A stretch of DNA of 20,000 bases from an uncultured virus (IMG/VR IMGVR_UViG_3300009873_000002) (taxonomy: Duplodnaviria; Heunggongvirae; Uroviricota; Caudoviricetes): IMG/VR virus record IMGVR_UViG_3300009873_000002, positions 108,846-128,845 of that record; one strand, 5' to 3'. Positions 2,852 to 20,000 of this stretch are shown in pieces; position 1 is the stretch's first letter, and every line of letters starts with the position of its first letter. The position numbers were made by a program, and so were the translations under genes. The notes below the pieces were generated by a model, which was given only the letters and a program-made list of their open reading frames with translations, had not been told where the DNA came from and made no database searches.

Positions 2852-5065
2852 CTATCTTAGGTTCTTAAACGGGTTACGGGGAGGTCTGTTCTTCCCGCTT
2901 AAACCACCACCCGTTCCGCCAATGTGACGAAATGGGCTCTTATCTAATTTAACGATTTTATCTGACTTGTGCAAATTATCATTGCGTTCTAAACGCTTGC
3001 TATATCCTCGGTTGGCCTGTTGAATCTTCATGAAAGCAACCAAAGCAGCAAAGGAAACTAACCGGTCAACGTTGATATCTTCGTTGTAAGCGGTCATCTC
3101 CTTGATCAGCATAGGATCCGGAATGCGTTCTACACCGAATGTAATCTTCACAATATCACCGTTTTCCTTGGTTTCTACATCAAGTTCTTCGGTAAGGTAT
3201 TCAATAGCATAACTGAGCAGGTGATTCTTGAATATGGTACCTACGTTCTTCCAACCATACTCTTGGTACACATTACTATTGGCGCCAAGATCTTTGAGGA
3301 AGAGGATCTGATTCTTAGGCACCAGATAGCGCTGCTTACGCTTACTGATCATGTACTGGATAAATAAGGAAACGTTGTTCTCAACAACCGCCCATGCATT
3401 ATACCACTCCAGCATCAACTCCAAACGCTCATGAGTTTTGTTGATATCATTGAATCGACCACACCAAGCAGCCACAATCTTATCCCTCTCGATGAAGGTT
3501 TCGAACGTACCATCCCCGCGCTCGCGTGTTACTTCTATCGCATTCTTCATGATATAGATGGAACACAGAGATTCGGAGGTTGTAGTTTTTCCTTCAGATA
3601 CCGGGTCAATTGATGCGTAGTACATTCCAAACTCAGGCTTATCAACTGGTCTCTCCCATACAACAATAGATCCTTCTTTATCCTCAGCCTTTTTATCTAC
3701 CGGGAAAGTTGATATAGGAAGCTTGTTAGTTTCTTTCCACTGAATCTTACCTGAAGCATCCCGGGATAGATCCACAAAAGTGTACGGGTATTCTTTATCC
3801 TCGATTCGCTTACCTTGCTTGGCCAGGAGATGGATCGGGAACTTAGACTCTTTACGGTAAGCAAAGGCTTCCGCAATATTTCTTGGGCGCTGAGAAACTT
3901 CAAGCTGATAATCCTCGGGATCCAAAACCTTCTTGAGGTGTTCAAACTCCTTGTTTAAAGCATCAAGAGCTTCTTCAACTTTAGAGTTACCGAACTCATC
4001 AATGAATGGCGGCATTGACCATTGCTCTGGTAAAAACAAACCAGTCTTTCCGATTGTACCTTTCTCATCTAAGAGATTGGTCTCAACAGGATACATCCCG
4101 TTAGCTTCAGGATTCAGGATGAATTTCTTCAGAGGTTCACATTGTTCAAGATCACCCACAGAACCTGCAATGATGAAGATACCGGTAGTCTGTTGACCGA
4201 ATCGCATAGCTGGTTTGATATAACCATAGGTTTCATCAGCATCCGGGGCAATACCACCCTCTTCGTAAAAGAAGATACGACATGGACCCCCTACACCTGC
4301 AGCAGGATCTTGTTCAAACGAAGTACCTTTGATCTCACCTTTCAAACCTTCATCATACTTTCTACCATTGGCATCAGTCACCTCGATCTTCTGCTCCCAG
4401 TGGAGAGGCTTACCAGGATTCATGGGACGATACCATGCTGTATTCTTATTGAGGAATGATCTGTACTCATCAAAGAACTTCCAGCTACCAGACGCATCAA
4501 TGTAACCCTTAAGACTTGCACCGATCTTTCCTTTGAAACCTTCTTCGAACCAAACATAATTTGTAAGTTTGGCTACGTGATAGTAGGATGATGCAATCTG
4601 TCGTTTCTTAAGAACAGGTGCATGTTTATAATACAACTCCGCCAGTAACTCATAGAGGGCCATGTGATACTGCACATCCATGACTTCGGGGAAAGCGAAC
4701 TTATTCTTCCGCTTGTCATTTATCTGCAGATAGTTTAACCACATGTAATACTCTCGAGGTATGTACCAGGTGTGGGATCCACTTATGAATAATACACCTA
4801 ATCGACAGCGTTCTTTATTTGTATCCCAATATCGATCGTAATCTCGGGTCTTCTTGGGAGCTCCGCAATAGAATCCTCTTTGCTCAAATATCCTGGATTG
4901 TTCGTTGAAGACGTAGGAAGTATCATTGAACTGGTACTTACCAGGTTCCCTGAACAATGGTGTTAGGAAGTCGCGGAATTCATCCCGGGTACCGAAACCA
5001 GTGTACTCCCAGTTACCGTTACGCCATGTAGGCACATCTATGAAAGGTTTAGTGGCGTGGGTCAT
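2852..5065 (-). CDS. terL: Terminase large subunit
   Basis: 737 aa; ATPase motifs VLKKRQIASSY (Walker A-like) and IFFYEEGG (Walker B); RNase H-like nuclease motifs YYASIDP, VVENN and NVDRLVSF. Confidence 0.93.
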   Translation of the reverse strand: MTHATKPFIDVPTWRNGNWEYTGFGTRDEFRDFLTPLFREPGKYQFNDTSYVFNEQSRIFEQRGFYCGAPKKTRDYDRYWDTNKERCRLGVLFISGSHTWYIPREYYMWLNYLQINDKRKNKFAFPEVMDVQYHMALYELLAELYYKHAPVLKKRQIASSYYHVAKLTNYVWFEEGFKGKIGASLKGYIDASGSWKFFDEYRSFLNKNTAWYRPMNPGKPLHWEQKIEVTDANGRKYDEGLKGEIKGTSFEQDPAAGVGGPCRIFFYEEGGIAPDADETYGYIKPAMRFGQQTTGIFIIAGSVGDLEQCEPLKKFILNPEANGMYPVETNLLDEKGTIGKTGLFLPEQWSMPPFIDEFGNSKVEEALDALNKEFEHLKKVLDPEDYQLEVSQRPRNIAEAFAYRKESKFPIHLLAKQGKRIEDKEYPYTFVDLSRDASGKIQWKETNKLPISTFPVDKKAEDKEGSIVVWERPVDKPEFGMYYASIDPVSEGKTTTSESLCSIYIMKNAIEVTRERGDGTFETFIERDKIVAAWCGRFNDINKTHERLELMLEWYNAWAVVENNVSLFIQYMISKRKQRYLVPKNQILFLKDLGANSNVYQEYGWKNVGTIFKNHLLSYAIEYLTEELDVETKENGDIVKITFGVERIPDPMLIKEMTAYNEDINVDRLVSFAALVAFMKIQQANRGYSKRLERNDNLHKSDKIVKLDKSPFRHIGGTGGGLSGKNRPPRNPFKNLR

Positions 5066-11115: not shown

Positions 11116-11465
11116 GGTTGGTATCTATTATCGACAACAGCATTTACACACGCTTCATCAGTACAAGCTTTAATCTGGTCCTTCAATGCTGATCCGGAAA
11201 ACAACGGTGTTGTTTTAGCTGAAACTGCAGCCAGATAGAAGTTAATCTTGTTAGCTAAAGTGAGGTAGTAAACACTCTCATCTTTGGTTGATATCGGTAT
11301 AGGAAAAGCAGCATCTGGTAATAATGGTATATTACTCCAGTTGATCTGCGCAGTAAGAGACATAGAAAATGTCTTGTTGTCAAAGACAAACCCTTGATCT
11401 ATGATTAAACGAGATACCTCATCAATCTCGTTGTATCTGATATCTTTTAACTCGTCTAGTGTCAT
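11112..11465 (-). CDS. Tail-associated protein (DUF4376-like)
   Basis: LDELKDIRYNEIDE...GFVFDNKTF...LKDQIKACTDEACVNAV pattern, typical of small genes following tail fibres. Confidence 0.55.
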   Translation of the reverse strand: MTLDELKDIRYNEIDEVSRLIIDQGFVFDNKTFSMSLTAQINWSNIPLLPDAAFPIPISTKDESVYYLTLANKINFYLAAVSAKTTPLFSGSALKDQIKACTDEACVNAVVDNRYQP

Positions 11466-12064
11466 GTTAATATACTGGTTGCTTGGTAAACATCAAGTGT
11501 ATGGTTAGATCCTGCAGTAACAACCTCCCATTGTAAGTCAATTGTATTGGGTATAGCTTTATTCCAGGTTCCTGATCCTCGAACTGTCCGACGATTTATT
11601 TCGGAAGTCGCAGTCTGGTTGAATAATCTGAACAATCCTTCAACCGTATTTCCGGCACGAAAAGTGAGATCTACTTCGAATATGAAGAAACGACCTGATA
11701 TAATACCAACACCCGGTGCAAAAGGAGCAAATGTTAAAGTCAGTCCTCCAATGTTAACTCTGAAGTTTATAGTACCCGGACCTCCGGTTTTACTATATTG
11801 GCAGATGACTTGGATCTTTCTCGAGCGACCATCAACTACTGCAGCATCTACGGGAAATGGCATGCTCATGAAATTGGACATAGGAGATATCCCAGCTTTA
11901 GCATAAGAGGCTGCAACTGGAAAAAGATATTCAGACTTCACATTTCCACTACCTGCAACTATATCAGCCATCGTAGCAAATGGATTGCCCGGTGCTGGTG
12001 CATTAGCATTCATCAAAGCCTTAAACTGGTTGTAAGGCAGTAGTTGGTCTATCTCTGTCTTCAT
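11462..12064 (-). CDS. Putative virion/tail protein (beta-rich)
   Basis: 200 aa, G/T/V-rich beta-strand pattern, within the tail block. Confidence 0.55.
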   Translation of the reverse strand: MKTEIDQLLPYNQFKALMNANAPAPGNPFATMADIVAGSGNVKSEYLFPVAASYAKAGISPMSNFMSMPFPVDAAVVDGRSRKIQVICQYSKTGGPGTINFRVNIGGLTLTFAPFAPGVGIISGRFFIFEVDLTFRAGNTVEGLFRLFNQTATSEINRRTVRGSGTWNKAIPNTIDLQWEVVTAGSNHTLDVYQATSILT

Positions 12065-12921
12065 TAAGATACGTAAGTTACAAGTAAATCGGTTCCTGTT
12101 CCATTATAAGCAATCACAGCTAATGTATCATCTTCTCCATCCGCAGAGAATGATACACGCTCTCCTGGAAGGAGAGTTGCTCCTAATACCGTGGCATTAC
12201 CTCCACCCGCGTTATAAATAGAAGCTGAGCGAGCACCGGCCGGCACTGTACCTGCAGCAGATGCACGCACCATTACAGGAGTTCTTACTACCGCTGTAAA
12301 CTTGGCGCTAAAAGCCGCTAATGTAACTTCTGTTGCCAAAGGTCCTAAAGCTGCAGTAATCGCAGCAAGACCTGCTACTAATGTAGCTTCAGTAGCTCTT
12401 GTAGATAATGGTACATCAAGGTTAGCTGTGTTAGTAACAATACTACCAAGTAATGCATTTGTAGCAAGAAGAGTTACTTCACTGGCACGCGTACTAAGTG
12501 CAACATCAAGATCAGCATTAATTGCTGTTACCTGTGCTAGTATTCCCTCAAGAACAAACTGAGGATTTACAATCTGAATCGGACCAACTGGTACAACTAC
12601 AGCACCGCTTCCGTCATAGTAAATAGGCGGATCGAATGTATGAGTAGTTGTATTCCAGATGCGCACTTGCAAATAAGTTGGACAGTTAGCCGGACAGCCA
12701 ACTCCACCCAAATCCATTACAAGATTTTGCTCGAACTCTTTACCGTTTTGTAATGCAGCAAGAACCATAGTAAGAGTAGCCTCTGTGGCTAATCCTCCAG
12801 GAACTGTTACACCAGCAGCGATCTGAGCAAGCAGATGCCATGCTTTGTTCTGGAACGTGAAGTTATTCCCCTTCGTTCCATAGGTCTTGGTGTTACCTAT
12901 ACTTCCGCCTTTTCCGCTCAT
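12064..12921 (-). CDS. Putative structural protein with internal A(T/S)E(A/V)TL repeats
   Basis: 285 aa, Ala/Thr/Val-rich; repeats LATEATL, LDVALSTRASEVTL, LDVPLSTRATEATL and LATEVTL. Confidence 0.6.
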   Translation of the reverse strand: MSGKGGSIGNTKTYGTKGNNFTFQNKAWHLLAQIAAGVTVPGGLATEATLTMVLAALQNGKEFEQNLVMDLGGVGCPANCPTYLQVRIWNTTTHTFDPPIYYDGSGAVVVPVGPIQIVNPQFVLEGILAQVTAINADLDVALSTRASEVTLLATNALLGSIVTNTANLDVPLSTRATEATLVAGLAAITAALGPLATEVTLAAFSAKFTAVVRTPVMVRASAAGTVPAGARSASIYNAGGGNATVLGATLLPGERVSFSADGEDDTLAVIAYNGTGTDLLVTYVS

Positions 12922-12922
12922 G

Positions 12923-13249
12923 TTATAGCTGATTTAAAAGGTTAATAAATGCGTCAACTTTATCCTTGTCTTGTTGGGACATATTGTTGTAGTCCAACGT
13001 GACTGGAGTCATATCTACAGCAACTGCTATAGGTCGATTAGCATCGATACCTACAGAAGTATTACTGATGGTAACCATGGCCTTGTTTGATAACAAGCTG
13101 GTGAACCCATCATAAACCGGTTGTTGAACCGGCTGTAGTTCAGAACGAGTGATAGCTACAGTTTTTGTAGAACCATCACCTTGTGTTACGAACACCCCCA
13201 TGCAATCAGGGGCTGTTGTATCTTGGAATTGAGTAGCTGTAGTTTCCAT
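12923..13249 (-). CDS. Hypothetical protein (tail block)
   Basis: 108-aa ORF separated from each neighbour by 1 nt. Confidence 0.7.
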   Translation of the reverse strand: METTATQFQDTTAPDCMGVFVTQGDGSTKTVAITRSELQPVQQPVYDGFTSLLSNKAMVTISNTSVGIDANRPIAVAVDMTPVTLDYNNMSQQDKDKVDAFINLLNQL

Positions 13250-13250
13250 A

Positions 13251-15197
13251 TTAGAATACTGTTGGGATTATTAGACCTGGATCAACAATAACCCCGGTCG
13301 GAGTGAATACGTCAGTTACAAAAGCACTATTCGGTTTGCGTGTACGTACATTTTGGAAGCCTGATGTTACGGGAACACTTCCTGCTACAAGCTCTCCAAG
13401 AGCGCCTGCGCTGTCAGCCTCACAATTGTACATATAGATGTTATTACCAAGTTGGAACAAGTCAATCAATGCGATTGTACTATCCACTCGTGCATTATAC
13501 AATCTGCAGTCTTTTAAGTACAGCACATTGTTAGGTTGGTCAGGTAAACCTACATAACCAACACCTTGAACAATTACATAAGGATAAGGACCTGTAGTAC
13601 CGTTGCTCGAAATCAAACCTTGTTCAACCATAACCGGGCAAGTACTGCTCGATTGGCGAATAGCTTCTCGGTTACTTGACACGGATCCTTTGACATACAC
13701 ACGACCAACATCACCAACTACACCATCAGTTTGGATACCGGCATGATCATTTCCTGTGATGTTACCGTAGATCTTTACATTTCCACCGCGTACCGCAACT
13801 GTGTAGTGTTCTACACCAGCTGCTGGAACACCTGTTATAATCATATTACCTCTTACGGTAATATTAGAGGTTATAGGTGTAGTATTACCACAGTTCAATA
13901 CATCACGCTCATAGTTCGATGTACTGTTACCGTTCATGGTGATCTCAGGACATTCGATGTAAAGATTACCTTGGAACACTGCGGCTCCACTGTTTCTCAC
14001 AAAGAATATTCTTCGGTTAGAAATAATGTAGTCACGCACAAATAACTTCACATTACACAATCCACGGAATGTTGACATGAAGTTGAATCCGGCAAATGGA
14101 GTAGCATTGATCTTGTTACCCTTGATTGTAACGTTTGCAGTAGTTACAGTAGGCGCAATAGAGAATGCATAAAATGATGTTGTTATATGATCAAACTCGA
14201 AGTTGATAGTTGATCCTCCAGTGATGTTCAATACACCTATGAAACCATTTACAACAAGACTACCGGTAACTTTACAAGTTACGGATCCACCACCATCCTG
14301 GAATCCTCCAGAGATAATAGTAGCACCTGGTTCGAAATAGAAATCAACAAGGTTTTTGAAAGTCAATGTAGGCGGTGAGTATTGTCCTCTGCGTACATAG
14401 ATCAAAGCAGGTGTACCTGCAGGGGCTGCAGCAAGCGCTGCTTGTATAGTTTGATAAGGACGATCAAGTCTGTTAGGAAGACCGGTACCATCGTTACCAA
14501 ATGCAGCATCTACATAGTAGTCGCTGGCTGGTAAACTGAATGTCGGAGCTGCCGGTGATGTGCACAATCTGGTACCGTCTGGGAAGTGTATACAACCATC
14601 ACAGATATCAGTGATCTCTTGGCGTTCGTAGATAAATCCACCACCACCCCCTGCTTGCCAATCGATGAATGAAATAAGGTAGTACTTATCATTCACCGTA
14701 TCATGCATCACAAGACTGTTACCCGGAAGAGATCCAAAGGATCCGAGGTTATTTATTACCTCATTGTATAACGTGTCATAAGTCAGATTCTTTACCTGAC
14801 TTAAGTCACTTGTATCAAATGACCATTCGGTGTTTGCGGGCGAACCTGCATTTGCAGAGCTTTCCACGAGAGGGTTATACAACCACTGGCTTAATCCACG
14901 AGTGATAGCAACATCTTTATCGATGTTGTCATAAACAGTGGCGCCAGTACCGGTTGGATGATTGAAGATAAATTTCTCACTCAGGGTAAAACTCTTCTGC
15001 AGGTTTACCGAGCATTGAGATACACCCATAGCAGCAATGAAGTCTTCGACAAGCATAGCCATCTCGCGATATTTGGTGCTGTCTCGCTTACTATTTATGC
15101 TGCGACCTACAAGAATGAGGTCTTTATTTTTGATTAACTCAGAGGCTTTAAGAAGACCGTACTGAGCGACCATTGCGTTAAAATTTACTATATCCAT
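13251..15197 (-). CDS. Tail fibre/spike-like protein with right-handed beta-helix (pectin-lyase-like) domain
   Basis: YYVDAAFGNDGTG...PYQTIQAALAA...IYVRRGQY cap motif followed by N/G/I/T-rich beta-helix coils. Confidence 0.7.
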   Translation of the reverse strand: MDIVNFNAMVAQYGLLKASELIKNKDLILVGRSINSKRDSTKYREMAMLVEDFIAAMGVSQCSVNLQKSFTLSEKFIFNHPTGTGATVYDNIDKDVAITRGLSQWLYNPLVESSANAGSPANTEWSFDTSDLSQVKNLTYDTLYNEVINNLGSFGSLPGNSLVMHDTVNDKYYLISFIDWQAGGGGGFIYERQEITDICDGCIHFPDGTRLCTSPAAPTFSLPASDYYVDAAFGNDGTGLPNRLDRPYQTIQAALAAAPAGTPALIYVRRGQYSPPTLTFKNLVDFYFEPGATIISGGFQDGGGSVTCKVTGSLVVNGFIGVLNITGGSTINFEFDHITTSFYAFSIAPTVTTANVTIKGNKINATPFAGFNFMSTFRGLCNVKLFVRDYIISNRRIFFVRNSGAAVFQGNLYIECPEITMNGNSTSNYERDVLNCGNTTPITSNITVRGNMIITGVPAAGVEHYTVAVRGGNVKIYGNITGNDHAGIQTDGVVGDVGRVYVKGSVSSNREAIRQSSSTCPVMVEQGLISSNGTTGPYPYVIVQGVGYVGLPDQPNNVLYLKDCRLYNARVDSTIALIDLFQLGNNIYMYNCEADSAGALGELVAGSVPVTSGFQNVRTRKPNSAFVTDVFTPTGVIVDPGLIIPTVF

Positions 15198-15221
15198 CTT
15201 CGAAGGTATTAGGTGTACAAC

Positions 15222-15253
15222 CTAATATACGAAAATGTTACGATACCTCCAAA
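15222..15253 (-). promoter_or_regulatory. Putative promoter of the tail block (TTTG-N20-TATATTAG)
   Basis: One mismatch to the Bacteroidota -7 consensus, with a correctly spaced -33 TTTG; overlapped by an 8-bp inverted repeat (15207-15227). Confidence 0.45.
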
Positions 15254-15259
15254 TTTTTG

Positions 15260-15331
15260 TTGCCCGAGCTGGATTCGAACCAACCTTCCTTGAACCAAAA
15301 TCAAGTGTCCTGCCAGATAGACGATCGGGCA
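15260..15331 (-). tRNA. tRNA-Gln(UUG)
   Basis: Cloverleaf; anticodon arm CTTGA-TT-TTG-GT-TCAAG; U1-A72. Confidence 0.95.
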
Positions 15332-15336
15332 TTAAG

Positions 15337-15409
15337 AGGTCCCGGAGGGATTCAAACCCCCAACCTTTTGATCCGTATTCAAATGCTCATTCAGTTGAGC
15401 TACGGGACC
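15337..15409 (-). tRNA. tRNA-Arg(ACG)
   Basis: GGTCCCG/CGGGACC acceptor stem; TTTGA-AT-ACG-GA-TCAAA (unusual A32). Confidence 0.9.
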
Positions 15410-15421
15410 TGGTAATCTTTG

Positions 15422-15496
15422 GGTGGCCGGTGGGCTTCGAACCCACAAATCCGAGAACCACAATCTCGTGAGTCTACCCAATTCCTCTACGACCAC
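15422..15496 (-). tRNA. tRNA-His(GUG)
   Basis: CGAGA-TT-GTG-GT-TCTCG; C73; genomic -1 base is T, not G. Confidence 0.93.
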
Positions 15497-15498
15497 AG

Positions 15499-15572
15499 AG
15501 CCCAAGGAGGGAATCGAACCCCCGACCCTCTGTTTACAAAACAGTAGCTCTAACCTGCTGAGCTACTTGGGC
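15499..15572 (-). tRNA. tRNA-Thr(UGU)
   Basis: GCCCAAG/CTTGGGC; ACTGT-TT-TGT-AA-ACAGA. Confidence 0.95.
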
Positions 15573-15580
15573 TTAATCAG

Positions 15581-15655
15581 TACTCCGGACGGGATTTGAA
15601 CCCGTGATCTTCAGGATGAAAACCTGATGTCCTGGACCAGCTAGACGACCGGAGC
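15581..15655 (-). tRNA. tRNA-Glu(UUC)
   Basis: TCAGG-TT-TTC-AT-CCTGA. Confidence 0.95.
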
Positions 15656-15663
15656 AAAACCGG

Positions 15664-15714
15664 TTGATAGGGCGGACCTGGTACTATATCCGCTTTTATC
15701 AGGCATTCCTATCA
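15664..15714 (-). ncRNA. Small structured RNA (tRNA minihelix-like / pseudoknot-capable)
   Basis: TGATAGG/CCTATCA 7-bp stem stacked on a GCGGA/TCCGC 5-bp stem; CCTG/CAGG cross-pairing possible. Confidence 0.4.
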
Positions 15715-15718
15715 TCAG

Positions 15719-15792
15719 TAGCGGGGGTGCGACTCGAACGCACGACCTTTGGGTTATGAGCCCAACGAGCTGACCAACTGCTCTACCCCGCC
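15719..15792 (-). tRNA. tRNA-Met(CAU), initiator-like
   Basis: TTGGG-CT-CAT-AA-CCCAA (three G-C pairs), A11-U24, G1.U72 wobble. Confidence 0.9.
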
Positions 15793-15800
15793 ATTACCTG

Positions 15801-15874
15801 TGGATCCTACCGGTTTCGAACCTGTTACCTTCGCATTATGAGTGCGCTGCTCTAACCAATTGAGCTAAGGATCC
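15801..15874 (-). tRNA. tRNA-Ile2(CAU) (lysidine type; elongator Met not excluded)
   Basis: GCGCA-CT-CAT-AA-TGCGA; Ile2-like body, A73; the leader of this operon contains an ATA codon. Confidence 0.75.
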
Positions 15875-15879
15875 AGTTG

Positions 15880-15952
15880 TACCCTCGGTAGGACTCGAAC
15901 CTACAACCTTAAGCTTAGAAGTCTCCTGCTCTTCCAATTGAGCTACGAGGGC
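15880..15952 (-). tRNA. tRNA-Arg(UCU) with weakened anticodon stem
   Basis: A20 Arg identity element; GGAGA-CT-TCT-AA-GCTTA (G27xA43 and A31xG39 mismatches). Confidence 0.85.
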
Positions 15953-15955
15953 TTG

Positions 15956-16026
15956 TTCCCCCACCGAGAATCGAACTCAGGTCAATAGATTAAAAGTCTA
16001 CGGCTTTACCACTAAGCTATGAGGGA
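15956..16026 (-). tRNA. tRNA-Lys(UUU)
   Basis: GTAGA-CT-TTT-AA-TCTAT; U1-A72; 4-nt variable loop. Confidence 0.93.
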
Positions 16027-16034
16027 ATGAAGAA

Positions 16035-16100
16035 TCATGACGAACGTTTTCGTCTGCTCTTTATTCTATCCCATATCAATAGTACCATTGCCATTTTCAT
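16035..16100 (-). CDS. Putative 21-aa micro-ORF MKMAMVLLIWDRIKSRRKRSS
   Basis: Fills the Val-Lys tRNA spacer; A-rich sequence before the ATG. Confidence 0.35.
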   Translation of the reverse strand: MKMAMVLLIWDRIKSRRKRSS

Positions 16101-16108
16101 TTTTGTTG

Positions 16109-16183
16109 TAGGAACAGAGAGATTCGAACTCCCGGCCCTCTCCTTGTAAGGGAGATGCTCTGAACCAGCTGAGCTATGTTCCT
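16109..16183 (-). tRNA. tRNA-Val(UAC)
   Basis: TCTCC-CT-TAC-AA-GGAGA. Confidence 0.95.
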
Positions 16184-16186
16184 ATT

Positions 16187-16264
16187 TGGTCGACACACAT
16201 GGATTTGAACCACGGACCCCCACATTATCAGTGTGGTACTCTAACCAAGCTGAGCTATGTGTCG
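16187..16264 (-). tRNA. tRNA-Ile(GAU)
   Basis: CCACA-CT-GAT-AA-TGTGG; encoded ACCA end. Confidence 0.95.
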
Positions 16265-16270
16265 ATTTTG

Positions 16271-16343
16271 CGTACTGGGTTGGGTTCGAACCAACGTACT
16301 CTTGATTAACAGTCAAGTGCTGAACCAGCTCAGCTACCAGTAC
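16271..16343 (-). tRNA. tRNA-Asn(GUU)
   Basis: CTTGA-CT-GTT-AA-TCAAG; G73; 5' 14 nt overlap the end of the HNH ORF. Confidence 0.95.
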
Positions 16344-16668
16344 TTTTTGCATGTTCCTCTCTATGACAGTTTGCACATAGAAGTTCACATTTGTCAATTT
16401 CCTCTTTAACCTTTTCCCAACTCCGTGTGTATCCCTTGTCACTAATACTAAAATCCTTACCTCCTTTATGATGGAAATCAAGAGCATCCACGCATTTATC
16501 ATATCCACACCTCTCACATTTACCACCCTTATAAGCTACAGCCATTAGCTTAATCTTCTTCCTACGCTTAGCTACAGCTTCGACCATGCACTTTTTACAT
16601 CTCCAACAGTTTTGATCCTTTCTGAGAGAGTGTTCTTGTAAACCATGCTTACGACATTCCTTTTCCAT
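16330..16668 (-). CDS. HNH endonuclease (Zn-finger type, putative homing endonuclease)
   Basis: CKKC, CERC..ALDFHH...CELLCANCHREEH; start at ATG 16668 (MEKECRKHG). Confidence 0.88.
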   Translation of the reverse strand: MEKECRKHGLQEHSLRKDQNCWRCKKCMVEAVAKRRKKIKLMAVAYKGGKCERCGYDKCVDALDFHHKGGKDFSISDKGYTRSWEKVKEEIDKCELLCANCHREEHAKSTGS

Positions 16669-16672
16669 TCTA

Positions 16673-16703
16673 CAAAGGTATAACAATTTCTTGTTATACC
16701 AAT
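16673..16703 (-). promoter_or_regulatory. Internal promoter for HNH (ATTG-N19-TACCTTTG) within a perfect 10-bp inverted repeat
   Basis: TACCTTTG at 16673-16680, 4 nt before the ATG; GGTATAACAA-GAAA-TTGTTATACC at 16677-16700. Confidence 0.65.
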
Positions 16704-16706
16704 CTT

Positions 16707-16811
16707 TGGGGCCGAGTAGGGTTCTTAACCCACATCCATCGTCTTTAAGTCAACGACCGTTTTCACCTCCAGTGTCAGCACGCCACACCGGATCTTTTAA
16801 ACTATCGGCCA
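16707..16811 (-). ncRNA. tRNA-like RNA with a hairpin inserted in the D-loop
   Basis: GGCCGA/TCGGCC acceptor followed by CCA; TA; GTTT/AAAC D-stem enclosing TCCGGTGT/ACACTGGA; GTCGTT/GACGAT stem with GACTTAAA loop; GTGGG/CCTAC T-like stem. Confidence 0.65.
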
Positions 16812-16817
16812 ATCCTG

Positions 16818-16891
16818 CGGTCTATATGGGACTCGAACCCATGATCTCCTCCGTGACAGGGAGGCGTCCACTCCAACTGGACTGATAGACC
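16818..16891 (-). tRNA. tRNA-Asp(GUC)
   Basis: CCTCC-CT-GTC-AC-GGAGG; G73; C8 instead of U8. Confidence 0.93.
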
Positions 16892-16903
16892 TTCAATTGC
16901 TTC

Positions 16904-17029
16904 GAGAGACACTCTTGCAAAACACAGCTTTTTCAAACATCGTCCTCGGCTTCTAAGGACTGTGGGCTTTAACCACTCTGTGTTCATCATACCATCTCAG
17001 CCAACAGTACTGCTGTCACTGTATCTCTC
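16904..17029 (-). ncRNA. Candidate multi-branched structured RNA
   Basis: Closing stem GAGAGATAC/GTGTCTCTC; inner AACACAG/CTGTGTT enclosing GTGG/CCAC and GTCCT/AGGAC hairpins. Confidence 0.45.
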
Positions 17030-17059
17030 AGGCGCCCAAGTGATAGTTGGGTACCGGTG

Positions 17060-17133
17060 AGCGAGTGGTGAGACTCGAACTCACAACACCCTGCTTGGAA
17101 GGCAGGTACTCTAGCCAATTGAGCTACACTCGC
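17060..17133 (-). tRNA. tRNA-Gly(UCC)
   Basis: CCTGC-CT-TCC-AA-GCAGG; U73. Confidence 0.95.
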
Positions 17134-17175
17134 TGGTCGAGCGGATTTTAACGAGTACCGCCCATACTCTCGTTG

Positions 17176-17250
17176 TGGAATGGCTGGGATTTGAACCCAG
17201 GACCTTCTGCTTGCAAAGCAGCTGCTCGACCAGACCGAGCTCCGCACCCC
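17176..17250 (-). tRNA. tRNA-Ala(UGC), atypical
   Basis: G3.U70, A73; GCTGC-TT-TGC-AA-GCAGA; extra base at the acceptor-D junction and no U8/A14. Confidence 0.8.
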
Positions 17251-17304
17251 TAGTGACCCTTTTCTTTAATTTTCAGTTTGTGGCGGTCAATCCGTATCTG
17301 CTAG

Positions 17305-17377
17305 TCTAAGTGGCAGGACTCGAACCTGCGGCCTGAACATCCCAAATGTCCCGCGCTACCAACTGCGCTACACCTAG
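17305..17377 (-). tRNA. tRNA-Pro(UGG)
   Basis: C1-G72; GGACA-TT-TGG-GA-TGTTC; begins immediately after the terminator U-tract. Confidence 0.95.
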
Positions 17378-17413
17378 AAAATAAAAAGGCCCCCGGTGTT
17401 AGCGGAGGCCTTT
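17378..17413 (-). terminator. Attenuator terminator of tRNA operon A
   Basis: AAAGGCCTCCG-CTAACAC-CGGGGGCC-TTTTTATTTT between the leader ORF and tRNA-Pro. Confidence 0.88.
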
Positions 17414-17438
17414 GGTATCATTGGGTTGGTGTTGTCTA

Positions 17439-17543
17439 TTATCCTTTGATGAATATACCCAAAATAGCGGCCTCCAGAGATAGGCGATCCACGCCTTTCT
17501 CCATCGTATTAATCGGTTGCGCTATATGTTGTAGTTGTCTCAT
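17439..17543 (-). CDS. Leader peptide A (34 aa) MRQLQHIAQPINTMEKGVDRLSLEAAILGIFIKG
   Basis: Starts 8 nt after a TATATTTG -7 box; codons 2 and 6-20 cover the 16 codon boxes of the 16 downstream tRNAs; contains the antiterminator GGAGGCC. Confidence 0.85.
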   Translation of the reverse strand: MRQLQHIAQPINTMEKGVDRLSLEAAILGIFIKG

Positions 17544-17551
17544 CTGCTCTG

Positions 17552-17582
17552 CAAATATACATAGAATCTTTATACGTGCAAC
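17552..17582 (-). promoter_or_regulatory. Bacteroidota sigma-A promoter of tRNA operon A
   Basis: GTTG-N19-TATATTTG. Confidence 0.8.
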
Positions 17583-17620
17583 ATTACATGTAAACTTTTT
17601 TTACTTTTCTATACATGTAG

Positions 17621-17694
17621 TACTCCCGATGGGATTCGAACCCATACTGGACGGATTTTAAGTCCGTTGACTCTGCCGGTTGGCCTACGGGAGT
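17621..17694 (-). tRNA. tRNA-Leu(UAA), short variable loop
   Basis: ACGGA-CT-TAA-AA-TCCGT; 5-nt variable region; A73. Confidence 0.92.
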
Positions 17695-17750
17695 TTGTGT
17701 ATCATTAATCTTCAATTATGAGACACAAAATAATTTGCGTCTCATCTGTG

Positions 17751-17825
17751 TACCCCTACTCGGACTCGAACCGAGAAAACTTCTGATCCTAAGTCAGACG
17801 ACTTTACCAATTTGCCCATAGGGGT
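17751..17825 (-). tRNA. tRNA-Leu(UAG), short variable loop
   Basis: TCTGA-CT-TAG-GA-TCAGA; 6-nt variable region; A73. Confidence 0.92.
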
Positions 17826-17830
17826 ATGAG

Positions 17831-17916
17831 CGGAGAACAGTGGCCCTGATCCACAATCGGTGTTAGCCGATCGAGCAGCTTAGCAGGCTGTCCCTACCCA
17901 GGTAGGTTTGCTCTCC
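17831..17916 (-). tRNA. tRNA-Ser(GCU), 8/4 fold
   Basis: GGAGAGCA/TGTTCTCC 8-bp acceptor, GTGG/CCAC 4-bp T-stem, 5-bp D-stem, long variable arm, G73. Confidence 0.85.
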
Positions 17917-17921
17917 TTGAG

Positions 17922-17993
17922 AGGTACCGGCAGGATTTGAACCCGCGTAATCGAGTTTTGCAAACTGATGACTAACCACTCATCCACGGTACC
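17922..17993 (-). tRNA. tRNA-Cys(GCA)
   Basis: U73; TCAGT-TT-GCA-AA-ACT(C)GA with a bulged C. Confidence 0.88.
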
Positions 17994-18048
17994 TTATTTA
18001 AGTTTCCGGCCGTAAAGTTAAATAGCCGAATTCTTATTTTACTTTCTG

Positions 18049-18119
18049 CACAGAGTGTAGGGATCGAACCCACCCGGCAAGGTTTTGGAGGCCCGCCCGC
18101 TGCCATCGCTGTACTCTGT
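18049..18119 (-). tRNA. tRNA-Trp(CCA), atypical
   Basis: Perfect ACAGAGT/ACTCTGT acceptor and T-arm, CT-CCA-AA loop, G73; weak D-arm and C31xA39. Confidence 0.72.
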
Positions 18120-18125
18120 GTGTTG

Positions 18126-18216
18126 CGGAAAGCGGAGGACCCGACCCCCAGTCCAGTTACCCAGACACCCAGTTTTCAAGACTGGTCGCGGCTCCAATGC
18201 CACTGCTTCACTTTCC
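18126..18216 (-). tRNA. tRNA-Ser(UGA), 8/4 fold
   Basis: GGAAAGTG/CGCTTTCC 8-bp acceptor, GGGG/CCTC T-stem, CCAGT-CT-TGA-AA-ACTGG, long variable arm, G73. Confidence 0.85.
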
Positions 18217-18224
18217 ATTCTATG

Positions 18225-18310
18225 TGGGACCCGGTGGACTCGAACCACTCCCCATTGCTGAGACCGAATTTACAGTCCGGCTGCCGTATCCAAGACGACT
18301 TTCAGTTCCC
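18225..18310 (-). tRNA. tRNA-Tyr(GUA), probable 8/4 fold
   Basis: GGGAACTG/CGGGTCCC acceptor (one mismatch), GTGG-TTCGAGT-CCAC, 5-bp D-stem, GCCGGA-CT-GTA-AA-TTCGGT, variable arm CTCA-GCAA-TGGG, A73. Confidence 0.87.
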
Positions 18311-18317
18311 AAGTTTG

Positions 18318-18389
18318 TGAGACCACGTGGAATCGAACCACGGCTGTCGGCTCTTCAGGCCGATGCTCTACCAACTGAGCTATAGTCCC
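18318..18389 (-). tRNA. tRNA-Phe(GAA)
   Basis: TCGGC-CT-GAA-GA-GCCGA (G37); starts 2 nt after the terminator U-tract. Confidence 0.93.
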
Positions 18390-18391
18390 GG

Positions 18392-18429
18392 AAAACAAAA
18401 ACCCCGGTATCATTGCTGACCCGGGGCTT
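18392..18429 (-). terminator. Attenuator terminator of tRNA operon B
   Basis: AAGCCCCGGGTCA-GCAA-TGATACCGGGGTTTTTGTTTT (GNRA-capped hairpin plus U-tract). Confidence 0.88.
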
Positions 18430-18462
18430 CTGTGTATGCAAGAGGTAACTTCTTGTACTCAG

Positions 18463-18534
18463 CTATGCGCGTTCCTGGGCAGCTCCTGGATGGAGTAACC
18501 AAAACGAACAATAACTGAGTAATAATGCTTTCAT
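18463..18534 (-). CDS. Leader peptide B (23 aa) MKALLLSYCSFWLLHPGAAQERA
   Basis: ATG 4 nt after the TATCTTTG -7 box (near-leaderless); codons 5-12 match the 8 downstream tRNAs one-for-one. Confidence 0.88.
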   Translation of the reverse strand: MKALLLSYCSFWLLHPGAAQERA

Positions 18535-18538
18535 GTGA

Positions 18539-18570
18539 CAAAGATAATGCATGCAATCGGATCCACCAAA
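18539..18570 (-). promoter_or_regulatory. Bacteroidota sigma-A promoter of tRNA operon B
   Basis: Consensus TTTG-N20-TATCTTTG. Confidence 0.85.
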
Positions 18571-18623
18571 GGTTTTCTCAACTTTTTTCATGGTGGTGTC
18601 AGCAATAACCAGTATATTATAAT

Positions 18624-18932
18624 ATGAAGATTCAAGAAATAGCAAACGATCCCGGGACCTATATCTTCCACTGTCCGGGCTGTGGTATGTTACACCAGGT
18701 GCCGACCAAGAGAGCCGGTGGTCCAAACTGGTCGTTCAATGGGAGTATGCAACGGCCGACCTTTAGTCCAAGCTTGTTGATCCGGTTCCCGCATTTCGAT
18801 GGAAGTAAGGATGTCAATTTAGTTTGTCACAGTTTCGTAAAAGATGGGAACATTCAATATTTGAGTGACTCCAGTCATGAACTGGCCGGACATACTGTAG
18901 AGATTCCGGAAGTAGAGACTTTCCTGAACTAA
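18624..18932 (+). CDS. DUF6527-like small metal-binding protein
   Basis: FHCPGCG..H, WSFNGS..RPTFSPSLL and CHSFVKDGNIQYLSDS.H.LAG.TV motifs. Confidence 0.75.
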   Translation: MKIQEIANDPGTYIFHCPGCGMLHQVPTKRAGGPNWSFNGSMQRPTFSPSLLIRFPHFDGSKDVNLVCHSFVKDGNIQYLSDSSHELAGHTVEIPEVETFLN

Positions 18933-19135
18933 CGCTTCTCAAGACTTTCAAGCTTGGCGTCAACGCGGCCTCTCTGGTAAGCATCATCTACCAAGTGTTT
19001 CTGATAATCCTCTGTGAGGCGGATACCATGGTCGCGCAATTCCTTGTACATATTCAACGCCTCTTTATATCGAGCGTCACTTCGCTCATCCCGGATCTGA
19101 TTCTCCCGCTCAACATTGTGCTCGATCTCCTCCAT
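18929..19135 (-). CDS. Hypothetical protein
   Basis: 68-aa charged helical ORF converging on 18624..18932 with a 4-nt overlap. Confidence 0.55.
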   Translation of the reverse strand: MEEIEHNVERENQIRDERSDARYKEALNMYKELRDHGIRLTEDYQKHLVDDAYQRGRVDAKLESLEKR

Positions 19136-19457
19136 GCGAGACTCGGCATCTACTCACCCTTATCATATCTACATAGATACGAATAACCTTCCGCTGATTC
19201 TTTACTCGCTGCGGCTTGCGAGATTTTGACTTAGACTTTGGCATGTGTGTTGGTTTGGTACAAAGGTAGCGAAAATTGTGGAATATAGGATGTGGAAGGG
19301 GTATCTAGTAAACAACCCCCGGCCCCTCGCTCGCTTGGGCTCCTACCCCGCCATCGCTCCAGGCCCTCGCTCCGCACGCCAACGCACATGCACGTTTTTT
19401 TCTCCAGCAGAAGAAGTGTTCGCTTGCAACCCAGAACAGGGTACAAATCCATCTACC

Positions 19458-19541
19458 ATGAAAACCATCATCCGAAGTGAGATTACCTGGCTGGCAGCTT
19501 GGTTCTCTGCTATGTTATTCATTGCATACGTTGTGTGCTAG
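19458..19541 (+). CDS. Small membrane peptide MKTIIRSEITWLAAWFSAMLFIAYVVC
   Basis: 27 aa, one TM helix, preceded by the GCAACCCA motif. Confidence 0.5.
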   Translation: MKTIIRSEITWLAAWFSAMLFIAYVVC

Positions 19542-19605
19542 TATAAGGCCCTGTAATGGGGTCTTCTCTTTTGCTTCGCAACCCATTACGGGCACAAAAT
19601 CACAC

Positions 19606-19800
19606 ATGGAAACAATAACCAAAGACACCATAGGACGAAGGATAGTAAGCCATGGTCAAGAAGTAAAGGTCATCGATGTCTGGGAAGAAGCAGGTGATCG
19701 CATTTACTTGGAGCTTGAACACCCGATTGTAGTACCAGGTCCTGAGTACACTCGTGATGTAATCAAAGCTGATGAAGTACAGAAGGTTGTGCCCGAATAG
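19606..19800 (+). CDS. Hypothetical small beta-barrel-like protein
   Basis: 64 aa from METITKDT; preceded by the GCAACCCA motif. Confidence 0.65.
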   Translation: METITKDTIGRRIVSHGQEVKVIDVWEEAGDRIYLELEHPIVVPGPEYTRDVIKADEVQKVVPE

Positions 19801-19852
19801 GGTACAATCTTTTTGCTCGAGGCAACCCAATACGCGGGGGAAATACACAATC

Positions 19853-20000
19853 ATGATAGCATCATTAATCAAAGACGGTATCCTGCACATGGTGCAGATC
19901 CGTAAAGACTCTAACAAGAGTAAGTCTGTTGCCCGCGTGCACACAGTAACCGGTGAACCAATTCAGCTACTTAAGGAAGTAGGTGAGAACAAGTTCATCG
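19853..20000 (+). CDS. Hypothetical protein (partial, runs off window)
   Basis: Open frame MIASLIKDGILHMVQIRKDSNKSK... to the window end; preceded by the GCAACCCA motif. Confidence 0.6.
   Translation, partial: MIASLIKDGILHMVQIRKDSNKSKSVARVHTVTGEPIQLLKEVGENKFI

Follow-up and report, generated by a model that had tools for sequence, protein, structure and literature searches.

A candidate leader-peptide attenuator ahead of sixteen tRNA genes in an uncultured phage

We analysed a 20,000-nucleotide (nt) stretch of DNA, hereafter the window, which forms the last 20 kb of the 128,845-bp uncultured virus record IMGVR_UViG_3300009873_000002, a record with direct terminal repeats. The window carries 22 tRNA genes on the minus strand, from 18389 to 15259; a tail-like gene comes directly after them and, further downstream on the same strand, the genes for terminase and portal. 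Within the array, a 242-nt gap separates tRNA-Leu(UAA) from tRNA-Pro, and in this gap lies a short open reading frame (ORF), designated ORF-A, whose stop codon is placed 25 nt ahead of an intrinsic terminator. Why would a phage set a short ORF and a terminator in front of its own tRNA genes? An earlier note on this DNA had proposed that ORF-A is the leader of an attenuator. Our analysis supports this interpretation, though it does not prove it: given the anatomy of the locus, its predicted helices, a modelled range of stall positions, a second unit in the window and analogous units in other phages, we consider it reasonably likely that the arrangement, designated unit A, is a leader-peptide (ribosome-mediated) transcription attenuator that gates the 16 downstream tRNAs. 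The parts first needed are the following.

17543-17439, minus strand: leader ORF-A, 34 codons plus stop, between two tRNA blocks.
17540-17484, minus strand: sensor codons 2-20, in which all 16 codon boxes of block A are represented.
17413-17378, minus strand: intrinsic terminator of unit A, with its stem (regions 3 and 4) at 17413-17385 and a U-run to 17378.
17377-15259, minus strand: tRNA block A, 16 tRNAs beginning with tRNA-Pro at 17377; in order Pro, Ala-like, Gly, Asp, Asn, Ile, Val, Lys, Arg(UCU), Ile2-like (CAU), initiator-like (CAU), Glu, Thr, His, Arg(ACG) and Gln.

When the sequence was read again, every codon and coordinate previously given for ORF-A was confirmed. Codons 6-20 (17528-17484) fall in 15 different boxes, none of them a box of the six upstream tRNAs, and codon 2 (AGA) supplies the sixteenth box of block A. 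The earlier note had suggested computing how readily such a run arises under genomic codon usage. With usage taken from 127 ORFs (37,847 codons), a 15-codon run of different block-A boxes has P = 4.5e-8 per position. It is the longest such run among the 257,686 six-frame positions of the 128.8-kb genome, where the next independent runs reach 12 codons, at two places; the six-frame counts drop about three- to four-fold with each added codon, and a 15-box run is expected a few hundredths of a time per whole genome. No in-frame run in the 127 ORFs exceeds 12. This single run sits in the sole 242-nt gap preceding the matching block, and on the correct strand. In order to treat codons 2-20 as a set, 19 codons were drawn at random: all 16 boxes were covered in 0 of 2,000,000 simulated draws, and the 15 non-Met boxes with P = 1.5e-6. 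By strict wobble, all but one of the 15 elongator tRNAs have a codon among codons 2-20 (14 of 15, P = 4.7e-6). The codon observation is thus genuine and far outside what chance would give, and the tRNA list needs correction at three points. Because enrichment over the whole ORF is weak, the signal is a packing of one codon per tRNA into codons 2-20 and no general bias. The codons chosen from family boxes are rare in the phage (GCG, 9% of Ala codons; ACG, 7% of Thr; GGC, 9% of Gly; CGC, 15% of Arg), and 9 of the 11 ORF-A codons at which a choice exists, read by eye from the lists, use a third base that wobbles against the phage anticodon.

The corrections concern the claim that each of these boxes has a tRNA in the operon, which held for most boxes but failed for ATG and needs caveats for Ala and Gly. 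The tRNA at 15718-15792 (anticodon CAU) is 88% identical to an annotated tRNA-fMet of a Stenotrophomonas phage, and its sequence reads as three G-C pairs at the foot of the anticodon stem, A11:T24 and a G-T at 1:72, which we take to be initiator marks. By these features it is initiator-like and would serve the start codon, not an internal ATG; codon 14 (ATG) would therefore be left without an elongator tRNA, and no elongator Met tRNA is found among the genome's tRNA calls. The other CAU tRNA, at 15800-15874, has its best match in E. coli records annotated tRNA-Ile (79%), and that its closest matches are tRNA-Ile supports its reading ATA. An Ala-like tRNA was placed by Rfam at 17176-17248 (minus strand), with UGC in its anticodon loop. 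Its score is the lowest of the cluster (40.7 bits), two pairs of its acceptor stem and one of its anticodon stem are non-standard, and ARAGORN misreads it as an 89-nt Gln(CUG). Finally, reading GGC with the anticodon UCC requires four-way wobble and does not occur under strict wobble.

The terminator of unit A has 11 pairs (7 G-C), a loop of 7 nt and a predicted energy of -17.4 kcal/mol. The end of its U-run at 17378 directly adjoins the start of tRNA-Pro at 17377. Since the terminator touches tRNA-Pro and leaves no space for a promoter, the 16 tRNAs would be made only by readthrough. In both units of the window a terminator thus stands between leader and tRNAs, with no later promoter and with U-runs that end 0-2 nt before the tRNA. 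Upstream of the unit A terminator, further elements were delimited.

17525-17515, minus strand: region 1, codons 7-10, the 5' strand of a predicted anti-antiterminator.
17501-17477, minus strand: nested hairpin within codons 15-23, present in both alternative states, -12.1 kcal/mol.
17475-17464, minus strand: region 2, codons 23-27, which may pair with region 1 or, through 17475-17469, with the 5' arm of the terminator.
17466-17416, minus strand: inner helix and loop of the predicted antiterminator, 17466-17457 pairing with 17426-17416.

The antiterminator put forward in the earlier note rested on a 7-nt segment at 17475-17469 that begins 8 nt past codon 20 and is the exact complement of the terminator 5' arm at 17410-17404. 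Both the position and the complementarity were confirmed and this core stands; for its inner extension RNAfold prefers another register, with 17466-17457 paired to 17426-17416. Two helices had also been named as competitors. One, between codons 7-8 and 17469-17464, is predicted and does compete; the other, the hairpin at 17501-17477, is real in the prediction but coexists with both states. The structure 17527-17463 is predicted at -21.8 kcal/mol, to which region 1:2 pairing adds about -9.7 beyond the nested hairpin, and the whole antiterminator (17476-17403) at -22.0 kcal/mol. The ORF-A stop codon (17441-17439) falls within the antiterminator loop. Bases 17475, 17474, 17471 and 17469 are common to the 1:2 helix and the antiterminator, and three mutually exclusive helices are predicted in all: region 1:2, region 2:3 and region 3:4, the last being the terminator. 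Unit A is accordingly predicted to have an antiterminator that acts on the terminator 5' arm and an anti-antiterminator that overlies the sensor codons.

In order to place the ribosome on this scheme, its footprint was masked at each A-site codon and the RNA was refolded, either as the full transcript or cut before the 3' arm of the terminator. In the cut transcript, upstream pairing of the 5' arm has P 0.86-0.91 when the A site is at codons 1-19, falls to 0.46-0.74 at codons 20-30 and returns to 0.88 at codons 31-35. The stall positions that would leave the antiterminator free are thus codons 1-19, which coincides with the packing of the 16 boxes.

The following mechanism is hypothesized. With no ribosome on the leader, the 1:2 helix would form first, the terminator would follow and transcription would stop. 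An unhindered ribosome would melt region 2 and reach the stop codon in the antiterminator loop, and the terminator would again form. A ribosome delayed in codons 2-20 would keep region 1 off region 2; freed, region 2 could capture the emerging 5' arm of the terminator, and the polymerase would continue into the tRNAs. Nearly every tRNA of the block is represented by one codon in codons 2-20, and most of these codons are rare in the phage. The leader may therefore sense slow decoding at any of many codons, and the tRNAs released would relieve the slowness in a negative feedback.

A leader must be translated, and the 242-nt spacer might instead be a non-coding structured RNA, or an element for processing or stability of the tRNA precursor, with ORF-A untranslated and its codon run a coincidence. 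We give this explanation little credence. The stretch does fold better than its shuffled versions (z = -3.3), its "codons" are rare for the phage, as would be those of non-coding sequence, ORF-A matches no Pfam or PHROG family at E up to 1, and no Shine-Dalgarno-like motif precedes it. The same motif is absent at 100 of the 127 ORF starts, so that its absence before ORF-A does not argue against translation. Coincidence would also have to place the genome's longest six-frame run exactly before the matching tRNA block, and in a family of analogous leaders described below the frame is kept by 3-nt indels. A cmscan search of 15000-20000 at E up to 1 returned tRNAs and chance-level matches only; the match on this stretch has E 0.52, and neither the T-box nor the Rfam leader families (Thr, His, Leu, Trp and similar) appeared.

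The start regions of the genome's ORFs also bear on the host. They carry an A-rich stretch at -14 to -10, which, together with few Shine-Dalgarno motifs, we take to be typical of Bacteroidota and their phages. The terminase and portal match crAss-type PHROG families, and the terminase shares 22-27% identity with its counterparts in Crassvirales phages recorded from Bacteroides, Flavobacterium and Cellulophaga hosts. Judged by these proteins, the phage is a distant member of the Crassvirales, and its host is for that reason probably in the Bacteroidota.

If unit A is an attenuator, are the other six tRNAs of the array controlled in the same way? Upstream of them lies a comparable arrangement, unit B.

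18645-18616, minus strand: promoter-like site of unit B, 10 of 12 matches to the sigma-70 consensus, spacer 18.
18591-18463, minus strand: leader ORF-B, 42 codons plus stop, starting from an internal ATG of the frame 18463..18726.
18525-18493, minus strand: sensor block B, codons 23-33.
18521-18456, minus strand: long hairpin, -29.0 kcal/mol.
18433-18392, minus strand: intrinsic terminator of unit B, with a bulged stem at 18433-18395 and a U-run to 18392, -25.1 kcal/mol.
18389-17620, minus strand: tRNA block B, with Phe, Tyr, Ser(UGA), Cys, Leu(UAG) and Leu(UAA).

Like ORF-A, ORF-B is a short same-strand ORF with a start codon upstream of its tRNAs; a leader enriched in codons tied to the regulated products is found in unit A and, more weakly, in unit B. 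In sensor block B, 9 of the 11 codons fall in the six boxes of block B, all six being represented; the remaining two are Ser AGT and Trp TGG. The chance of this is 7e-4 per random ORF, and 7 of 36,704 windows in real genes are as good. The 5' arm of the long hairpin is made of the sensor codons and its 3' arm of the end of ORF-B and the stop codon, and part of the 3' arm (18480-18469) is able to pair with the 5' arm of the terminator. The terminator ends 2 nt before tRNA-Phe, with 30 nt between the ORF-B stop and the stem; it was not listed by a simple scan because the scan permits no bulge. A U-rich arm favours block-B codons, as block B consists of TTN, TCN, TAY, TGY and CTN tRNAs. Unit B looks like the same kind of device, serving the tRNAs for Phe, Tyr, Ser and Cys and the two for Leu. 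Among proteins of 23-74 residues, no homologue of ORF-B was found.

A separate observation was made within block B. Between tRNA-Ser and tRNA-Cys, at 18120-18049 (minus strand), lies a tRNA-like element whose acceptor stem has 8 pairs, whose T arm is good and whose anticodon loop is enlarged and contains CCA (Trp). It falls under every tRNA threshold (20.8 bits with the tRNA-Sec model, E 0.036 in a 141-base search). Were it functional, it would supply the tRNA-Trp that the phage otherwise lacks, and the TGG codon of ORF-B would then have its match.

Analogous units were sought in other viral contigs with a 17-nt pattern of the tRNA-Phe anticodon arm. This gave 19 loci, 12 of them with tRNAs, and five loci were extended; a simple terminator finder then marked terminators within 200 nt upstream of a tRNA block. 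Nine further units were found, in L101, L106, L108, L112, L113 (two), L114, L115 and L116, and a terminator was also marked before the tRNA block of L089. Each unit consists of an ATG-initiated ORF of about 23-35 codons, followed by an intrinsic terminator and a same-strand tRNA block, with 23-38 nt from stop to stem by coordinate subtraction versus 25 and 30 nt in the window. L106 and L108 have identical ORFs and terminators, and L106 was excluded from the statistics because it duplicates L108; L101 is homologous to L113 unit 1. The analogue ORFs are unusually diverse in composition: one has all 20 amino acids in 27 post-start codons (P = 2.3e-5) and two have 19. Coverage of the amino acids of the block by its leader was scored for each unit, including those of the window.

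L115: P = 1.1e-4.
L108: P = 1.5e-3.
L112: P = 2.5e-3.
L114: P = 3.3e-3.
L113 unit 1: P = 5.2e-3.
L101: P = 9.8e-3.
Window unit A: P = 0.026.
L116: P = 0.17 (ATG start) or 0.042 (GTG start).
L113 unit 2: P = 0.25.
Window unit B: P = 0.26.

Contigs with two tRNA blocks are the most informative. Leader 1 of L113 draws on the CTN, CGN and ATY codons of its own block, leader 2 on the TTR, AGA and ATA codons of its own (Fisher P = 0.002 for this Leu/Arg/Ile contrast). The L112 leader is devoid of Leu, Asn, Pro, Gln and Tyr, the tRNAs for which occur only in a later L112 block. In a swap test of 8 units, the own-block score was positive in 8 of 8, and the true pairing was reached by 4 of 40,320 permutations, or 4 of 5,040 when L101 was left out. 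When L101 is compared with L113 unit 1, the frame is maintained across two 3-nt indels, the length of the ORF is conserved and the differences in the terminator stems preserve pairing. To judge from these sequences, units of this kind are found again in phage tRNA arrays unrelated to this one, and there too the leaders match the blocks that they precede. No sequence similarity links the analogue leaders to those of the window, and by our own reading it is composition and position that are alike. A 30-codon ORF before the second block of L112 covers the amino acids of that block but has no credible terminator and was not counted. No GenBank phage carrying the L113 leader, which might have offered a model that can be cultured, was found.

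Other features were observed in the analogue contigs. GOLLD RNA (Rfam RF02032, 274-278 bits) is present at L093:4351-4767 (minus strand) and L096:1455-1869 (plus strand), directly upstream of the leader and terminator unit ahead of the tRNA block in two analogue phages; none is present in the window at 15000-20000. In the 142-kb L112 phage contig, a tRNA with the anticodon CUA lies downstream of the tRNA arrays (L112:9732-9806, plus strand); it would read the TAG stop codon and is labelled Pyl by ARAGORN. Several analogue blocks have in common a motif of about 15 nt with a perfect TTGACA immediately before their first tRNA (L112:750-770, L113:9335-9352, L115 about 3385-3400, L116 about 1940-1955), which stands too near the tRNA to act as its promoter.

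The conserved length of the L101 and L113 unit 1 ORFs might also be expected if these ORFs encoded small functional peptides with their own promoter and terminator that merely lie beside tRNA genes. ORF-A has a hydrophobic C-terminal third, and a promoter-like site, an ORF and a terminator together make a complete small gene. Ahead of ORF-A lies the following promoter-like stretch.

17581-17552, minus strand: promoter-like stretch of unit A, with an 8-nt box at 17559-17552 and TTG 19 nt upstream.

The box fits the Bacteroidota -7 promoter consensus TAnnTTTG. TAnnTTTG boxes are only mildly enriched upstream of the genome's ORFs (0.71 versus 0.42 per kb; 9 in 127 regions). The ORF-A ATG lies 8 nt past the box, and the mRNA would therefore be nearly leaderless. 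A sigma-70 scan gave no listing at 17581-17552. That the ORFs serve as functional peptides seems to us improbable, however, as the searches run found no homologue or family and the analogue leaders share only composition and position with those of the window. Such peptides would predict neither a match of each leader to its own tRNA block nor a terminator that leaves no space for a tRNA promoter.

Several observations weigh against the attenuator interpretation, and we gather them here. Every sensor codon is present only once, and classical attenuators repeat their regulatory codons. Three of the 16 codon-tRNA matches (ATG, Ala and GGC) carry caveats. As a whole, ORF-A is unremarkable: 27 of its 33 codons belong to block A versus a 75% background, its amino-acid coverage of the block reaches only the P value listed above, and the own-against-other-block contrast of ORF-A and ORF-B gives a Fisher P of 0.07. 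The candidate promoter of unit A, read from sequence, is not established. Equilibrium folding of the full transcript gives the terminator with P of about 0.9 or more at all ribosome positions but two; because it favours the terminator nearly everywhere, the switch would have to be kinetic. The cut RNA also forms the antiterminator without a ribosome and with the ribosome at the stop codon, and the default state is uncertain because of the ribosome-free case. In unit B the antiterminator is weak (0.64-0.71 with the ribosome at codons 28-32 versus 0.34-0.65 elsewhere), and 17 stop-free six-frame windows of the genome equal sensor block B with all six boxes. Among the analogues, two leaders are each one amino acid short of their block (the L113 unit 2 leader has no Pro and the L114 leader no Glu), and 90-140 nt lie between the terminator and the first tRNA in L113 unit 2, L114 and L116. 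The tRNAs of L113 unit 2 may not need readthrough, since a promoter-like box was read after its terminator. The 23-tRNA array of phage crAss001 has no tRNA abutted by a terminator and no such leader.

Part of this evidence would fit ordinary terminators, leaky or overridden by a phage factor, that set the level or timing of tRNA and late-gene transcription, as processive antitermination does, beside short ORFs that are incidental or are translated but sense nothing. The near-constant terminator in equilibrium folding, the weak whole-ORF enrichment in the window and the promoter-like box of L113 unit 2 are what this explanation would expect, as is the finding that no terminator lies downstream of block A before the 648-codon tail-like gene at 15197, so that readthrough would feed late genes. 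It is nevertheless unlikely in our view, for it leaves the codon pattern to chance (P about 1e-6 or less) and accounts neither for its recurrence at unit B and in other phages nor for a segment within the ORF that is complementary to the terminator 5' arm.

Also to be set against the attenuator interpretation is that the searches run found no relative of leader A, so that there is no conservation or covariation for the locus. The searches run returned no homologue of leader A or leader B. A blastn search of 17300-17700 against GenBank phages matched tRNA parts only, and tblastn of the neighbouring 648-amino-acid (aa) ORF returned nothing. A locus search with the same ORF yielded two weak matches among viral contigs and one among metagenome contigs, and a 102-aa neighbour gave two loci (53-55% identity); none had a relative of the leader. 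The terminase has 477 relatives, the best 80 of which are 60-66% identical, and of the 16 with the longest contigs, 14 are without a tRNA and 2 carry a single one. A pattern of the tRNA-Pro anticodon arm hit four loci, none with a tRNA called at the match; three lack any tRNA, and the four tRNAs of L089 lie elsewhere. Near-identical DNA is present in activated-sludge and aquatic sequencing runs, and among the runs listed with it none is an RNA run. Strains were compared over 15200-18750 using contigs of four metagenome DNA runs with near-identical DNA. Leader A is identical in run X2. In run X4, a 356-nt piece covering leader A has four differences, two of which were displayed: one loses the innermost terminator pair and the other affects a bulged base. 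In three runs, leader B has a change from a Leu codon to a Ser codon, which still belongs to block B. The differences displayed, which leave out 103 others, are too few for a covariation test.

The same comparison showed five clustered differences in two metagenome runs at 17725-17738, within a hairpin-forming spacer that separates the genes for the two tRNA-Leu; run X2, which has the better coverage, shows no change in the neighbouring tRNAs or in leader A.

How would unit A relate to known systems? Leader-peptide attenuators of enterobacteria respond to a single amino acid (the his, leu, trp and pheA leaders) or to a few, as in thr (Thr and Ile codons) and in ilvGMEDA and ilvBN (Ile, Leu and Val). 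Unit A resembles them in its short leader, in the codons of region 1 and in its four regions, which are predicted only. Further points of likeness are the position of the stop codon, at which an unhindered ribosome would disfavour the antiterminator, and the readthrough expected upon slow decoding. It differs in that it would regulate tRNAs rather than biosynthetic enzymes, in being located in a phage, and in having one codon for each of about 15 tRNAs where the enterobacterial leaders have one to three kinds of codon in runs. T-box riboswitches, known from Gram-positive bacteria, also tie terminator readthrough to the state of the tRNA pool via an antiterminator, but they bind one uncharged tRNA directly, need no translation and control synthetase and amino-acid genes. 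Processive antitermination by lambda N and Q is alike in that the terminator lies inside a phage transcription unit and readthrough is needed downstream. Unlike unit A, it depends on a protein of the phage and on a site for recruitment, affects many terminators together and predicts no codon match. Unit A would be a variant of a known attenuation mechanism.

The purpose of phage tRNAs has been debated for decades, and their control has hardly been addressed. In its abstract, one report sets codon compensation against its own new proposal; according to its title, phage tRNAs evade tRNA-targeting host defences (PMC10264068). The abstract of another reports that phage tRNAs evade retron defences (PMC11555353). 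A full-text literature search found, in the portions of articles it covers, no account of leader-peptide control of tRNA genes. If the attenuator interpretation is true, the phage measures decoding speed and answers with tRNA supply, and attenuation, known for one to three amino acids, is extended to the sensing of about 15 tRNAs. The question of what phage tRNAs are for would become testable as which shortage opens which gate, and it would be seen which sensor codons limit during infection. For synthetic biology, the unit would be a compact part able to report on the tRNA pool as a whole.

A further proposal is made only tentatively, as one that may well prove wrong: the leader could be an any-of-many alarm for loss of host tRNAs, in which one hungry codon among about 15 opens the gate, and near-pangram leaders could constitute a general and so far undescribed class of tRNA-array control in phages (here with probable Bacteroidota hosts) that serves as an inducible counter-defence. 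The tRNA loss could be caused by an anticodon nuclease of host defence or by the phage's own run-down of its host. The phage would then replace the whole tRNA set on demand and not simply supplement codon usage.

One further feature lies inside block A.

16330-16686, minus strand: ORF of an HNH homing endonuclease.

One metagenome contig joins 16257 to 16699 and omits 441 nt; this variant may be without the HNH ORF.

Three additional tRNA calls lie elsewhere in the genome, far from the 22-tRNA cluster. A third leader unit was looked for before the extra tRNAs at genome positions 11336-14443, and none was seen. At genome 11336-11560 (plus strand), outside the window, tRNA-Ile(GAU) is followed by an apparent tRNA whose anticodon loop is interrupted. 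The insert is a complete 76-nt tRNA-like unit that ends in CCA and is called Ile(AAU) by ARAGORN. With the insert removed, the loop of the outer tRNA would show UAC (Val), and the region thus appears to contain one tRNA nested within another.

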